Below are positions 9,348 through 16,181 of a DNA stretch of 64,000 nucleotides, piece by piece (within the stretch, counting starts at the first letter, position 1; each line of letters starts with the position of its first letter). The DNA is from Myxococcota bacterium (lineage in GTDB: Bacteria > Myxococcota_A > Polyangia > Nannocystales > Nannocystaceae). The stretch spans positions 44,132 to 108,131 of the forward strand of contig JBCCHT010000041.1 in NCBI GenBank assembly GCA_039028615.1. The letters run 5' to 3'. The notes beneath the pieces are model-generated. The model ran no database searches. It was not told where the DNA came from and saw nothing but the letters and a program-made list of their open reading frames with translations. Both the position numbers and the translations under genes were made by a program.

Positions 9348-10118
9348 GTGAGCGCCGTCCAGATCGACCGCACGCCCCCGGTGACGACCGTCGTCCTGTC
9401 TCGCCCCGAGGTACGCAATGCAGTGGATGGTCCGACCGCTCAGGCGCTCGCGGATGCGTTTCGCGAGTTCGATGCCGACGAGCATGCTCACGCGGCGGTG
9501 CTGTGGGGCAATCACGGCTATTTCTGTGCCGGCGCCGATCTACAAGCGATCAGCCGCGGCACGCCCAACCGGCTCGCCCCCGACGGCGACGGTCCCATGG
9601 GTCCCTCGCGCATGCGACTGAGCAAACCGGTGGTGGCGGCGATCTCCGGACACGCCGTCGCGGGTGGCCTCGAGCTCGCGTTGTGGTGCGACCTGCGGGT
9701 GATGGAGGAAGACGCGGTGCTCGGCGTGTTCTGTCGCCGCTTCGGCGTGCCGCTCATCGACGGCGGCACGGTGAGGCTTCCGCAGGTCGTTGGGCTCGGG
9801 CGTGCGCTCGATCTGATCCTCACCGGGCGACCGGTGCACGCCGCCGAAGCGCTCGCGATGGGCCTGGTGAATCGGGTCGTCCCCAAGGGCCAGGCGCGCG
9901 AGGCCGCCGAGGCGCTCGCGAAGCAGATCAGCGGCTTTCCTCAGACCTGTGTACGCAGCGATCGGGCCGCGGTCTACGACGGGCTCGGGCTCCCGCTCGA
10001 TGAGGCGTTGCGGGTGGAGTTCCAGCACGGTCAACGAGCGCTCACCGACCCCGATCTCATCGCCGGAGCGACGCGGTTTTCCCAGGGAGCCGGACGCGGC
10101 GGCTCCTTCGACGACTAA
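9348..10118 (+). CDS. Enoyl-CoA hydratase/isomerase (crotonase family)
   Basis: RPEVRNA, FCAGADL, AVAGGLELALWCDLR, LILTGRPV. Confidence 0.92.
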   Translation: MSAVQIDRTPPVTTVVLSRPEVRNAVDGPTAQALADAFREFDADEHAHAAVLWGNHGYFCAGADLQAISRGTPNRLAPDGDGPMGPSRMRLSKPVVAAISGHAVAGGLELALWCDLRVMEEDAVLGVFCRRFGVPLIDGGTVRLPQVVGLGRALDLILTGRPVHAAEALAMGLVNRVVPKGQAREAAEALAKQISGFPQTCVRSDRAAVYDGLGLPLDEALRVEFQHGQRALTDPDLIAGATRFSQGAGRGGSFDD

Positions 10119-11797: not shown

Positions 11798-12484
11798 TCA
11801 GGCCTGGCCGCGCTTGGGTTTGCGACCACGGTCCTGCAGCGCGATCAGGCGACGGAACAAGCCCGGTCGGTGCAGGACCGAGGCGCCTCCCAACAAGGTG
11901 AGGGTAGCCGAGTACAGCGCCTCGTCTTCGAAGCCCGGTCCGTTGGTCCGTCGACGGGCCCACGACTCCAGCGCGACGAAGAAGCCATCGTGGAGTCGAC
12001 GACCGAGGCGCACGGGATCGATCTCGAGCTCCAACGCGCCCTCGGCCCGCGCTCGCTCGAGCAACGGCAGGGCCATCTGCTCCGCCCGCAGCATCGCGGG
12101 CAGCGATGAAGCGCCGACCTGCCCGCGATGCTCGTGCACGGCCAACGCGAGCGCACGAAACGAGGGCGCGTCTTGCCGGGCGAGTCGCACCGCGGTTCGG
12201 GTCCTCTCGAGGATCGCCTCCAGGGGGTCGGCCGCGTCGACGAGGTGCGCGGTGGCGGTCGCGAGCCGACCGAGCCCGTGGTCGACCAGCGCCCCGAGCA
12301 CCGCGTCGCGATCGCCGATGAGGTTGTAGATGGTGTTGACGCTCAGCCCCGCCTCGTCGGCGAGCTTTCGCATCGACAGCGCCGCGGCGCCTCCGTTCGC
12401 GACCAGCGTGCGCGCCCCGGCCATGATCCGCGCCCGTCGATCCGCCTGGCTGCGCTGAAGCTGCGTCGTGCCGTCGCTGGCCAT
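11798..12484 (-). CDS. TetR/AcrR family transcriptional regulator
   Basis: N-terminal HTH RARIMAGARTLV..GG..LSMRKLADEAGLSVNTIYNLIGDRD. Confidence 0.92.
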   Translation of the reverse strand: MASDGTTQLQRSQADRRARIMAGARTLVANGGAAALSMRKLADEAGLSVNTIYNLIGDRDAVLGALVDHGLGRLATATAHLVDAADPLEAILERTRTAVRLARQDAPSFRALALAVHEHRGQVGASSLPAMLRAEQMALPLLERARAEGALELEIDPVRLGRRLHDGFFVALESWARRRTNGPGFEDEALYSATLTLLGGASVLHRPGLFRRLIALQDRGRKPKRGQA

Positions 12485-12535: not shown

Positions 12536-13108
12536 TCAGGGCTCGTTGGGGGCTTCGTCGGCCGCGGGCACGCGCTCCAGCGCGCCCGGCAACGCCGGCA
12601 GCTCGACCACTTCGCCCTCGAACGCCTGGTCGAGATCGACGAAGCGCATCAGGTTGGTCCCCTGCCCGATCGCGGGCCACGAGGGCAAGGGCGCCCGGGC
12701 CTGGCCCTGTTCGTCGAGCATGTGGCTGCGGTCGGTACACAGCGTGGCTCGGTAGCGCGCGGCGGAGATCACTCGGCACCGAGCGGTGAACGGCGCCTCG
12801 AAGCCCGCGGGAAACGCCAAACTCTGCCGCAGGTAGATCGACATCGGCACGGGCATGCCGAGGGTGGAGTCGACGTCCCAGATCATCCACCCCGTCGGGC
12901 CGCGTGCGGCCATTACCACATGGTAATCCCAGACTACGGGCTGCTGAGGGGCAGGTGCGGCGCGTTGGTGCATCACCGCCACCGTGCGCGACGAGTTGGA
13001 GATGAAGATCGCGGCCCGCGGCTGCCCCTGCACCAACGGGTCCGCACACATCTGCCAGACGTTCTCCTCGCAGTAATAGGGCGCGGGCGTGAAGGATGGA
13101 GTGGTCAT
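12536..13108 (-). CDS. Protein N-terminal glutamine amidohydrolase homologue (NTAQ1/WDYHV1 family)
   Basis: YYCEENVW, FISN, PVVWDYHVV, WDVDSTL, RVI.A..Y, DRSHM.D..G and NL..F motifs, collinear with eukaryotic NTAQ1; ATG at 13108. Confidence 0.9.
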   Translation of the reverse strand: MTTPSFTPAPYYCEENVWQMCADPLVQGQPRAAIFISNSSRTVAVMHQRAAPAPQQPVVWDYHVVMAARGPTGWMIWDVDSTLGMPVPMSIYLRQSLAFPAGFEAPFTARCRVISAARYRATLCTDRSHMLDEQGQARAPLPSWPAIGQGTNLMRFVDLDQAFEGEVVELPALPGALERVPAADEAPNEP

Positions 13109-13248: not shown

Positions 13249-14187
13249 ATGCCACACCAGCTGTGGGCAACGTTCAGTGTCAAAGACCATTGTCGGCGGG
13301 GTTCGTTCATCGCGGAGGTCCTGCTCTACGACAAGTTGATCATCCCGGTCGTCCCGAAGGCCGAGGATGGCCTGCCCGAGGAAGAGGCCACCAAGGAATG
13401 GCAGCGGTGGACGGACAACGGGTGGGACCCCGAGCGACAGGACCGAGTCGTGGCGATCCTGGGAGACCTCGCCCGCCCGGTTCCCTGGATCCGAGAGCGC
13501 CAGGACGAATGGCAGCAAGAGAAAGTGCAGCAAGTGGCCGCCGATGCGCGCCGCGATGGCTATTTCATGACCGGGACCGTGCTGGAGCGCTTCGCCCCAG
13601 CCATGGCCGAGACGGTGGTCGCGGTGTCGCACTACGACGACGTCGAAGCGCTGAAGCGAGGGCAGCACATCCGCCGCACGACGCCCGAAGACAAGCTGCC
13701 TGGTAGCACCGTACTCGCCGTCCTCGGCCGTGAGTTGCTGGTGCCCGATCACGTGGGCAAAGACGACTTCGGCGCGCTGGAGGACGCGGTCGAGGTCGCT
13801 CGCACCACCGACTATCGCCAGCGTCGACGGTTGCTCTACGAATGGCAGAGGGACTTCATCAAAGACGGAGACTTCACCGACGCGACCGCGGTCATCGAAG
13901 CCGTCGAACACATGAAGACGCTCGTCGCCGACCTGGAGGAAGCCACTCGGCGCGCCAAACGATGGACCACGATCAAGAAGATCTTCTCGTTCTTCAAGCT
14001 CGGCACGAAGGTCGCCTCGGTGACCGCGCCCGCCCTGGCTCCGATCACCAAGGGCGCAGAAGTGGTGGTGGACATCGGCACCTTCGCCGCGAACGCAATG
14101 GACAACGACCCGGTGCCGAGCGACGAGGGGCTGCCAGCCGCGACCTTGCTGCTCGATGCACGGCAACGGCTGGAGATCGAACAATGA
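13249..14187 (+). CDS. Hypothetical protein, family not recognised
   Basis: 312-codon ORF with GGGAG RBS before ATG 13249; WATFSVKDH..EVLLYDKLIIP..W..W...GWDP N-terminus and a helical C-terminus. Confidence 0.75.
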   Translation: MPHQLWATFSVKDHCRRGSFIAEVLLYDKLIIPVVPKAEDGLPEEEATKEWQRWTDNGWDPERQDRVVAILGDLARPVPWIRERQDEWQQEKVQQVAADARRDGYFMTGTVLERFAPAMAETVVAVSHYDDVEALKRGQHIRRTTPEDKLPGSTVLAVLGRELLVPDHVGKDDFGALEDAVEVARTTDYRQRRRLLYEWQRDFIKDGDFTDATAVIEAVEHMKTLVADLEEATRRAKRWTTIKKIFSFFKLGTKVASVTAPALAPITKGAEVVVDIGTFAANAMDNDPVPSDEGLPAATLLLDARQRLEIEQ

Positions 14188-16181
14188 GCGAGCGCGAGAC
14201 CGTCGTGACCCTGTCCTGTCGAACCATGGCCGCGTGCCTCCCCTGCGTCGTGCTCGGGTGCGCACAACCGGAGCTCGACCCCGAGGTGGGACCAGCCCCG
14301 CAGGTGCAGCCCGATCTGCCCGAGGACCTGTGCGTGACCCCGCTGTCCGCCGACGAGCCCTACTGCAACTCGAGCCTGGCCGATGGGCCCTGGGCCATGT
14401 CGCATCGCACGAGCTACGCCCAGGGCTCGTCGCCGCTGCCCGCCCCTGCCGCCGACGCAGTGAGCACGGCCGCCCGCCAGCAGGTGCCGGGCATCCCCGT
14501 GGTCTTGGCCACCACCGCGCCCTACGAGGACGGCGGTCGGGCGATCTGGGCCGCGGTGCAGGGCTTCGACAACGCCATCGCCAAGCTGGATCACGAACGC
14601 TTCGAGATGGTCGACATCTACGTGCCGGCCGAGCGCGAGGACGACCCGCCCATGATCCCGCTGGGACTGACGGGGGCCTACTCCCTCGTGGATGCGCAGG
14701 GGCGCTTCGTGGTGGCGCGTGCCCGGCTGCTGTCGCGCTACGGCGACGAAGTCCCGGGCCAGCGCGACTCGGCCATCGCCCTGCAAGACCGCACCACCCT
14801 GCCCGACGCGTGGTTCTGCACGGCCGACGATCTGGTGGCGGGCATCGGCCTCGCCTACGACGGCGCCCTCATCCTCGTCACCGAGCAGGGCCAGGTCATC
14901 GCGGTCGACGAAGGCCCCGAAGGCCTCGACCAAGCGGGAGCTCGCATCGCCTCGATCAACGGCCCGCGCTGCACCGACGGCACGCCCGCCGAAGAGCTCG
15001 AGGTCGTCTCCAACAACGTGGCCATCGACGAGTCGGGCGGGATCTTCGTGGTCTCGAGTACCTCGATGCATCGCTTCGACCACCGCGACGGGACCCTGCA
15101 GCCGCGCTGGTCCGCGCCCTACGAAGGGGAAGGCAACCTCAGCCCGATTCGGCTCGGGCCGGGCTCGGGCTCGACCCCCAGCCTGATGGGTACACGCGCC
15201 GACGAGGACCGCTTCATCATCCTCACCGATGGCCAGCAGCTGATGCACCTGGTGTTCATGTGGGCGGACGACATCCCCGAAGGGTGGACCCCCATCGCCG
15301 AGGGCAAGGACCCGCGCATCGCCTGCGAGGTGCCCATTCGCTTCGGCGACGCTTCGGCCACCGACTCGATTTCCGAGCAATCGGTGCTGGTCCGAGGCCA
15401 CGCCGCGGTGGTGGTCAACAACCTGGTCACGGACCCCACGCTGCTGGACGGAATCGCGGCGATTCAGAACGTGGTGACCGCCCTGGAGAGCGGCGTCCCG
15501 GACAAGCAACCCTTCGGCATCCAGCGCGTCGACTGGGATCCCGAGGCCCGCGATTGCGTGGTGACCTGGGAAAATCCCGACATCAGCATCCCCAACGGCA
15601 TCCCCACCATGAGCACCGCGACGGGGCTGTTTTATGGCATCGGCAAGCGCGACGGCGCGTGGGGCCTGGAGGCGGTGGACTTCGAGACGGGGCAGTCGCG
15701 AGGTTTTTCGCCCACCACCACGCAGTGTCCCGAGGACTACGCCGCGTTCGGTCCCGCCGCCGCGATCCCGGAGGTCGTGGCCGCGCTGCAGGCCGAGCCG
15801 CAGTACTGCGAGAACTCGCTGTACGCCGCGACCACGGTGGGCCCCGACGGCATGATCTACACGGGCACGCTGGGCGGCATCACCCGCTATGTGCCCGACA
15901 CGGTCGGCGAAGCGAGCGTGGAGAGCCAGGTCGCCGGGGCCTTGGCTCAAGCCGACGACCTCATCGGGCGCGCGCAGCAGGGGGCCGATTCACAGCTCTT
16001 CGACGCGACCGAGGCCATGCAGCGCGCGCTGCTCCAGGTGCGCGAGCTCGGAGCCCTGGAGCTCGACGAAGACACCGAGGCCACCCGAGCGGAGGTCGAG
16101 GACGCCCTGGTCGTGGCCCTGCTCACCGAAGACGAGGCCGAGCGCGAGCAGGCCCTCGCCCGCGCCCGCGAAGTGCTATGA
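14184..16181 (+). CDS. Hypothetical secreted protein or lipoprotein, possibly a beta-propeller
   Basis: VVLGC lipobox-like segment; repeated strand motifs (NNVAIDESGGIFVV, GSGSTPSLMG, YAATTVGPDGMIYTG); helical C-terminal tail; start could be 14226. Confidence 0.75.
   Translation: MSERETVVTLSCRTMAACLPCVVLGCAQPELDPEVGPAPQVQPDLPEDLCVTPLSADEPYCNSSLADGPWAMSHRTSYAQGSSPLPAPAADAVSTAARQQVPGIPVVLATTAPYEDGGRAIWAAVQGFDNAIAKLDHERFEMVDIYVPAEREDDPPMIPLGLTGAYSLVDAQGRFVVARARLLSRYGDEVPGQRDSAIALQDRTTLPDAWFCTADDLVAGIGLAYDGALILVTEQGQVIAVDEGPEGLDQAGARIASINGPRCTDGTPAEELEVVSNNVAIDESGGIFVVSSTSMHRFDHRDGTLQPRWSAPYEGEGNLSPIRLGPGSGSTPSLMGTRADEDRFIILTDGQQLMHLVFMWADDIPEGWTPIAEGKDPRIACEVPIRFGDASATDSISEQSVLVRGHAAVVVNNLVTDPTLLDGIAAIQNVVTALESGVPDKQPFGIQRVDWDPEARDCVVTWENPDISIPNGIPTMSTATGLFYGIGKRDGAWGLEAVDFETGQSRGFSPTTTQCPEDYAAFGPAAAIPEVVAALQAEPQYCENSLYAATTVGPDGMIYTGTLGGITRYVPDTVGEASVESQVAGALAQADDLIGRAQQGADSQLFDATEAMQRALLQVRELGALELDEDTEATRAEVEDALVVALLTEDEAEREQALARAREVL

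Follow-up and report, generated by a model that had tools for sequence, protein, structure and literature searches.

An intact NTAQ1-family N-terminal glutamine amidase gene in a myxobacterium and its possible coupling to the bacterial N-degron pathway

The window (the whole 64,000-nucleotide stretch of myxobacterial DNA that was analysed) includes a gene for a protein of the NTAQ1 family, here designated P0002. The genes found at this locus are listed below.

9348..10118, + strand: enoyl-CoA hydratase (ECH) gene, identified by a profile match; a synteny marker and not a functional part
11798..12484, - strand: TetR-family regulator gene (PF00440), 51 bp downstream of the amidase gene and on the same strand
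12536..13108, - strand: NTAQ1-family N-terminal glutamine amidase gene (P0002), 190 aa, identified by PF09764, alignment and an AlphaFold model
13249..14187, + strand: gene for a hypothetical protein of 312 aa with a DUF6236-like lead from Atlas features, divergent from the amidase gene
13842-16181, + strand: long ORF, start probably near 14184, with a lipoprotein-like N-terminus and no Pfam match

The amidase ORF extends from an ATG at 13108 to a stop at 12536 on the minus strand and encodes 190 residues. A longer alternative of 244 aa, with a TTG start, overlaps the start of the divergent gene, and the ATG is favoured because homologues are approximately 178-190 aa long. The GC3 of the gene (0.874) is host-like, lying within the range of the neighbouring genes (0.76-0.91), and there is a single copy in the genome. 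The motifs that the initial annotation had recognized are all found in the order given, namely YYCEENVW, FISN, PVVWDYHVV, WDVDS, DRSHM and NLMRF.

The assignment to the NTAQ1 family made in that annotation was confirmed by the profile search and the structural comparison that it had proposed. The PF09764 (Nt_Gln_amidase) profile matched residues 10-170 of P0002 with 135.2 bits, far above the cut-off of 27 (E 2.6e-39), and the match covers model positions 3-177 of 184. Human NTAQ1 (PDB 4W79) aligned with P0002 across residues 10-158 (E 4.6e-23), and a search of P0002 with the NCBIfam profiles gave no match. An AlphaFold (AF2) model built from a 145-row alignment had a pLDDT of 95.6 and a pTM of 0.91. 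Foldseek returned 17 matches to this predicted structure at E<=0.001, and the 16 listed were human NTAQ1 chains with TM of about 0.8 (best match E 7e-16, TM 0.81). The next fold was that of protein-glutaminase (E 0.016, TM 0.34). The model therefore has the alpha-beta-alpha fold by which NTAQ1 is defined. Of the named relatives, Paraliomyxa miuraensis P0024 is the closest, with 66 % identity and an existing annotation as protein N-terminal glutamine amidohydrolase, and the genome records closest to P0002 are labelled Myxococcota and Nannocystaceae. The ORF in the window is a genuine, intact NTAQ1 in a myxobacterium and, judging by its sequence, it is probably active.

As the catalytic Cys is already at residue 13, a signal peptide is impossible in P0002, in agreement with the earlier reading. 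Of 260 homologues scored, 220 have the Cys among their first 20 residues, and just two of the longer N-termini are weakly hydrophobic. The position of the Cys and the rarity of hydrophobic N-termini therefore indicate that the NTAQ family is cytoplasmic.

In human NTAQ1, the catalytic triad is Cys28/His81/Asp97, with further contacts by Trp78, Asp79 and Tyr80 (passages of PMC4214742). [quoted passage not shown] The equivalent residues of P0002, with roles assigned by counting along the sequence alignment to human NTAQ1, are as follows.

Catalytic triad: Cys13/His63/Asp78, equivalent to human C28/H81/D97
Alpha-amino-binding residues: Glu14, Asp61, Tyr62, His129 and Met130, equivalent to human E29, D79, Y80, H148 and M149
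Backbone contact: Trp60, equivalent to human Trp78

The triad that the initial annotation had reported is thus intact. Conservation was examined in 363 unique prokaryotic homologue rows (from 373 domains), a set that comes partly from motif-seeded searches, and is to that extent biased toward conservation, and partly from a phmmer search that was not word-seeded. In this set, C13, E14, D61, H63, D78, H129 and M130 show zero substitutions, with 0-4 gaps each. Position 62 is Y in 360 rows and F in 2; at position 60, W stands in 358 rows, with F in another 3. The alpha-amino-binding residues are thus essentially invariant across at least six phyla, and we infer that bacterial NTAQ proteins would recognize a free N-terminus in the same way as the human enzyme.

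Because the triad and the alpha-amino-binding residues are retained and near-invariant, the chemistry of the human enzyme can very probably be extended to P0002, namely deamidation of an N-terminal Gln. P0002 would be a soluble cytoplasmic amidase with a papain fold. Peptides or protein fragments would be bound by their free alpha-amino terminus and, where the first residue is Gln, its side-chain amide would be hydrolysed via a thioester on Cys13, giving Glu and ammonia. Because Met is not cleaved off before residues larger than Val (passages of PMC9351520), substrates with an N-terminal Gln must come from endoproteolysis.

The gene neighbourhood points to descent at a constant position. Nine related loci have an enoyl-CoA hydratase gene arranged tail-to-tail with the NTAQ gene, its product being 69-78 % identical to the one in the window. 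Most of these pairs are in an RseP-TsaB-ECH block that the window also contains. Sharing of the block indicates that this position was inherited vertically; it does not indicate an operon. Between the enoyl-CoA hydratase and amidase genes, the window has three insertions (an OYE gene, a 94-aa ORF and the gene for TetR), none of which has a homologue in the other loci. For TetR, a search at E<1e-10 of the 109 loci apart from this genome's own found none. The TetR gene is possibly co-transcribed with the amidase gene; a search for a sigma-70-type promoter gave no match.

On the other side, the 312-aa hypothetical protein matched unnamed clusters and one cluster with 27 % DUF6236 members in the Atlas features (0.97-0.98), and it has no Pfam or PADLOC match and no homologue in the other NTAQ loci. 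The long ORF at 13842-16181 shows no link to the amidase in other loci. Clustering of neighbours, together with a scan of 61 flanking ORFs, which were chosen by a crude gene caller that left the amidase unplaced in 26 of 80 loci, found no conserved neighbour of NTAQ genes that recurs across lineages. In one lineage, a gene for an FHA-domain protein lies directly upstream of the amidase gene on the same strand (L045:4357-4986, L057:4396-4980 and L098:4317-4961).

Two other possibilities for the locus were rejected. When the Bpt, Aat, ClpS and ClpA proteins of this genome were compared by tblastn with 110 flanking loci (80 with up to 5 kb per side and 30 with up to 1.5 kb), in a search that detected its positive controls, there were no matches to bpt, aat, clpS or clpA, and an operon with N-degron genes was dismissed. 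In genome G086, one aat gene is about 3.1 kb from the amidase gene. A mobile element was discounted, as there was no plasmid or phage match and no PADLOC match.

The family is widespread. A phmmer search over representatives at 50 % identity gave 1736 matches (domains of life pooled), and at least 467 stretches were confirmed in a pattern scan across 185 579 species genomes. The 80 loci kept are from Myxococcota, Planctomycetota, Melainabacteria, Gammaproteobacteria, Acidobacteriota, Lentisphaerota, Bradymonadales and others. The amidase was found in 48 of 401 genomes in this genome's phylum and in 15 of 291 in Planctomycetota. The expectation that bacterial members were already in databases was correct: a 2023 supplementary table (PMC10318531) counts PF09764 members in bacteria (198), archaea (1), eukaryotes (1103) and viruses (1), and named annotations exist.

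Phylogeny was examined using an IQ-TREE tree of 102 rows, 74 of them prokaryotic (109 loci thinned to 73, plus the query) and 28 taken as eukaryotic, some of these being unnamed and assumed to be so; six partial rows were dropped. The tree is unrooted, protists are sparsely sampled and land plants are missing from the named rows. The 74 prokaryotic rows are split from 27 eukaryotic rows with support of 98/88 (bootstrap not fully settled), and the query clusters with L034, L038 and L081, which are Nannocystaceae-type sequences, at 100/98. The row left ungrouped in this count is P0285, which is nested among bacteria on a long branch; in this protein of 974 aa, the amidase is at the N-terminus, accompanied by a precomputed PF12309 domain. 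Its placement reflects either a second transfer or an artefact. The sole amidase with an archaeal label, L043 (record titled Bathyarchaeota), clusters with a gammaproteobacterial copy (99). Its flanking ORFs have the same lengths as those of L044 and its genome has bpt, and L043 is possibly a misbinned contig.

The amidase is also found fused to other domains. P0267, P0268, P0272 and P0275, the last labelled Myxococcota, have a common N-terminal domain that by Pfam is MMACHC (cobalamin-processing CblC)-like in three of the four. The partners in P0163, P0188, P0211, P0230, P0271 and P0125 are low-molecular-weight (LMW) phosphotyrosine-phosphatase (two clusters), UDP-glucose pyrophosphorylase (UDPGP), DUF309 (two) and a PrmA-like methyltransferase.

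The initial annotation had envisaged that the amidase could feed a Gln -> Glu -> Leu-Glu -> ClpS branch, and had named phylogeny and co-occurrence with bpt, aat and clpS as the checks. All of bpt, aat and clpS-clpA were found here, on contigs other than that of the amidase gene. The control genome, E. coli K-12, has aat and clpS and gave no match to Bpt or PF09764. The Bpt of the myxobacterium passes the NCBIfam PRK01305 cut-off. In passages of PMC9351520, the donor-pocket residues are named as A/A/Q/L for Bpt and S/S/E/Y for ATE1. Those of this Bpt, mapped through an ungapped stretch of the alignment with yeast ATE1, are A178/S196/Q200/L212, which agree with Bpt at three of four positions and lack the Glu277 of ATE1. 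The catalytic K227 and the Arg motif of the acceptor pocket are retained. On these residues, the donor pocket is classed as Leu-type. A search for NTAN1 (PF14736) gave no match in this genome, in a run where no positive control matched either.

The presence of bpt in other amidase carriers varies with lineage. Relatives are not independent, and all of the p values that follow therefore overstate. In Planctomycetota, bpt was found in 13 of 15 carriers compared to 62 of 276 non-carriers (OR 22), or in 12 of 14 carriers when the centre genome, which had been selected as a carrier, was omitted. In this genome's own phylum, any ATE_C match was counted in 18/48 carriers and 103/353 non-carriers (p 0.24), leaving 30/48 carriers with no Bpt/ATE (ATE_C) match. 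With six weak matches set aside, bpt was in 14/48 carriers and 101/353 non-carriers (p 1.0). ATE_N, indicating canonical bpt, was found in 13 of the 47 other carriers, and there were no ATE_N matches among the 31 carriers in families f20, f34, f41 and f62. In families f1-f19, which we assume to be the class of this genome, bpt was in all 6 carriers and 32 of 78 non-carriers (p 0.007). A family-stratified test (CMH) gave p 0.13 for canonical bpt, and p 0.012 when a divergent Bpt/ATE-like family (see below) was also counted. For carriers only, with no non-carrier background, clpS was in 44 of 47 and aat in 45 of 47, and bpt was in 35 of 50 further carrier genomes, including 9 of 10 from Melainabacteria/Cyanobacteria. 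These 50 come from the 80 scan loci, the records left out being mostly Nannocystales and Polyangiales.

Some lineages show a real coupling of the amidase to Bpt, and others show none. Absence of bpt from carriers had been named as evidence against the proposed branch, and it applies in part: bpt is missing from most carriers in this phylum and present in nearly all of those in Planctomycetota. The branch is possible in this genome, which has bpt, aat and clpS-clpA, but, because many carriers are without bpt, it cannot be the only role of the family.

Two ways in which carriers apparently without bpt might nonetheless modify an N-terminal Glu were considered and rejected. A broader Bpt/ATE profile, which recovered 6/6 canonical bpt loci in a local control, found no hidden divergent Bpt in 18 near-complete bpt-less genomes, a set that had no known positive within it and in which two genomes are single contigs and the record of Sulfidibacter corallicola is complete. 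The Glu of the GESM motif in Aat has a role in binding basic N-termini. This motif is kept in 21/21 aligned Aat rows, and an Aat with its specificity switched to acidic acceptors was discarded. The Aat of family f20 (L120, L121, L124, L128, L129, L130 and L133) is without approximately 30 N-terminal residues (an FP...GLLAxGGDL stretch) that are present in other Aat.

The weak ATE_C matches in this phylum come from a divergent Bpt/ATE-like family of proteins of approximately 350 aa, encoded at the following positions.

L140:2365-3411, genome G086
L141:2098-3156, genome G161
L142:76-1197, genome G301
L143:2226-3266, genome G132
L144:1952-2959, genome G102
L145:2049-3107, genome G152

Members of this family fall below the NCBIfam PRK01305 cut-offs, and no ATE_N match was found in the three carriers searched. 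They retain the catalytic Lys, and their donor pocket, which is S, T/S, E, Y/F/H, resembles the S/S/E/Y of ATE1, unlike the A/A/Q/L of Bpt. The family is hence a candidate for a true bacterial arginyltransferase. In family f20, such a gene was found in 3/14 amidase carriers and 0/20 non-carriers (p 0.06).

The explanation that we prefer, with a probability of about 50 %, is that P0002 and its relatives are true amidases that are coupled to Bpt facultatively and have a Bpt-independent use elsewhere. In this organism, the new N-terminal Glu would most likely accept Leu from the genome's Bpt, and the resulting Leu-Glu-protein would pass to ClpS and ClpAP, so that the bacterial N-degron pathway would have a tertiary tier. 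We propose only tentatively, from the genes present, that this three-tier pathway of Gln -> Glu (NTAQ), Leu-Glu (Bpt) and ClpS-ClpAP operates here. It could exist in some bacteria, namely this myxobacterium, many Planctomycetota and Obscuribacterales. Less likely than the three-tier pathway is that the eukaryotic Arg/N-degron pathway derived its Gln branch from the deep prokaryotic NTAQ branch together with the bacterial Bpt/ATE-type transferases, including the divergent family with its Arg-type donor pocket, a proposal that relies on a tree without a root.

Whole lineages have the amidase and no detectable Bpt, and the enzyme must therefore also be useful alone, most simply, perhaps, in clearing Gln-ended fragments. 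N-terminal pyroglutamate blocks aminopeptidases. The same chemistry could belong to peptide catabolism altogether without Bpt, with the N-terminal Gln of imported or internal peptides converted to Glu before it cyclises to pyroglutamate, and with ammonia released. We consider this the main rival to the preferred explanation, possible but less likely than it. The 30/48 carriers without a Bpt/ATE match are consistent with it, as are scattered neighbours, which include DPP-IV-like S9 peptidases (L077 and L089), an amino-acid permease (L042), and a gamma-glutamyltranspeptidase and a Lon substrate-binding domain (L080 and L107), but these neighbours are few and lineage-local. Pyroglutamyl peptidase is enriched in carriers (33/48 compared to 134/353), and this genome has no match for pyroglutamyl peptidase or glutaminyl cyclase. 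However, catabolism leaves the strong enrichment of bpt in Planctomycetota unexplained. The simple form of this reading, in which the amidase replaces pyroglutamyl peptidase, was refuted, as the association is positive and largely tracks families f20 and f41.

Other activities and origins fit less well. The alternative raised in the initial annotation, a repurposed papain-like enzyme acting as an internal-Gln protein glutaminase, a free-glutamine amidase, a small-molecule amidase or a protease, has been weakened and is now improbable. The fold is common to protein-glutaminase and transglutaminase-like proteins, the fusions (LMW-PTP, UDPGP, DUF309, methyltransferase and the MMACHC-like domain) are varied, and activity on free Gln is compatible with the sequence. 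However, all five alpha-amino-binding residues, in addition to the triad, are invariant over at least six phyla, the structural match to NTAQ1 (TM 0.8) is far above that to protein-glutaminase (0.34), and there is no signal peptide. A regulatory enzyme devoted to one partner or substrate encoded nearby, TetR here and FHA proteins elsewhere, is suggested by the same-strand TetR gene 51 bp downstream, the FHA genes directly upstream in L045, L057 and L098, and the two LMW-PTP fusions. As the TetR gene is missing from all other loci and no neighbour family recurs across lineages, we regard this as very unlikely. Least credible is a recent transfer from a eukaryote, contamination or a non-functional relic. 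Although the distribution is patchy (48/401 and 15/291) and the unrooted tree is compatible with an ancient transfer from eukaryotes to bacteria, the gene is in a 108-kb bacterial contig, has host-like GC3 and shares its block with nine related loci. It also clusters with Nannocystaceae-type sequences at 100/98, with the prokaryotic rows on one side of a 98/88 branch, its catalytic residues are invariant, and there is no plasmid or phage match.

If the preferred reading is true, the bacterial N-degron pathway would gain, through an active N-terminal Gln amidase that feeds Bpt, a tertiary tier that has been thought eukaryotic, and the carriers without Bpt would point to a second use of N-terminal Gln deamidation. 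Against this, the family and its bacterial members were in catalogues before, the locus shows no operon or system anatomy, and nothing sets P0002 apart from hundreds of other copies. P0002 is a new member of a known family, the bacterial branch of which is catalogued and functionally unstudied in the literature searched. Other bacterial PF09764 members have automatic annotations, and the literature searches, judged by titles and the starts of abstracts with most subscription papers outside reach, found no functional study of any of them.

Among known systems, the Chryseobacterium protein-glutaminase (PDB 2KSV, 3A54 and 2ZK9) has, like P0002, the fold of a papain-like Cys-His-Asp deamidase, with a TM of 0.34-0.35 and 11-13 % identity between them. 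This protein-glutaminase is secreted and acts on internal Gln. P0002 has no match to its profile (PF18626), and has its Cys at residue 13 and no signal peptide or pro-peptide.

[quoted passage not shown] However, the amidase gene lies apart from bpt, aat, clpS and clpA and is not obligately co-inherited with them. The secondary destabilising residues are Arg, Lys, Met and Thr (Aat) and Asp and Glu (Bpt), according to passages of bioRxiv 2021.07.26.453911, PMC4052509, PMC11441550, PMC7966870 and bioRxiv 2024.03.11.584350, with Thr reported as an Aat acceptor in the first of these. In these five accounts, the passages on the pathway do not go beyond primary and secondary classes of destabilising residue and mention no deamidation, which agrees with the earlier statement that none has been described.

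Human NTAQ1/WDYHV1 (PF09764; PDB 4W79, 3C9Q, 6KGJ and 8JJ*/8JK*) is the closest system of known function. P0002 has the same predicted fold (TM about 0.8, with 31-32 % identity in the structural alignment), and shares the Cys-His-Asp triad, all of the alpha-amino-binding residues and the single-domain size. It differs in that its host is bacterial, the tree places it on a prokaryotic branch apart from the eukaryotic rows and it is known here from its sequence and a model. To our knowledge, no ubiquitin-proteasome or ATE1 step follows deamidation in a bacterial host. Unlike for human NTAQ1, only Bpt could act downstream of P0002, and Bpt is missing in many carriers. The nearest counterpart is Paraliomyxa miuraensis P0024, which, with 66 % identity to P0002 and a location in the same synteny block, shows no essential difference from it.
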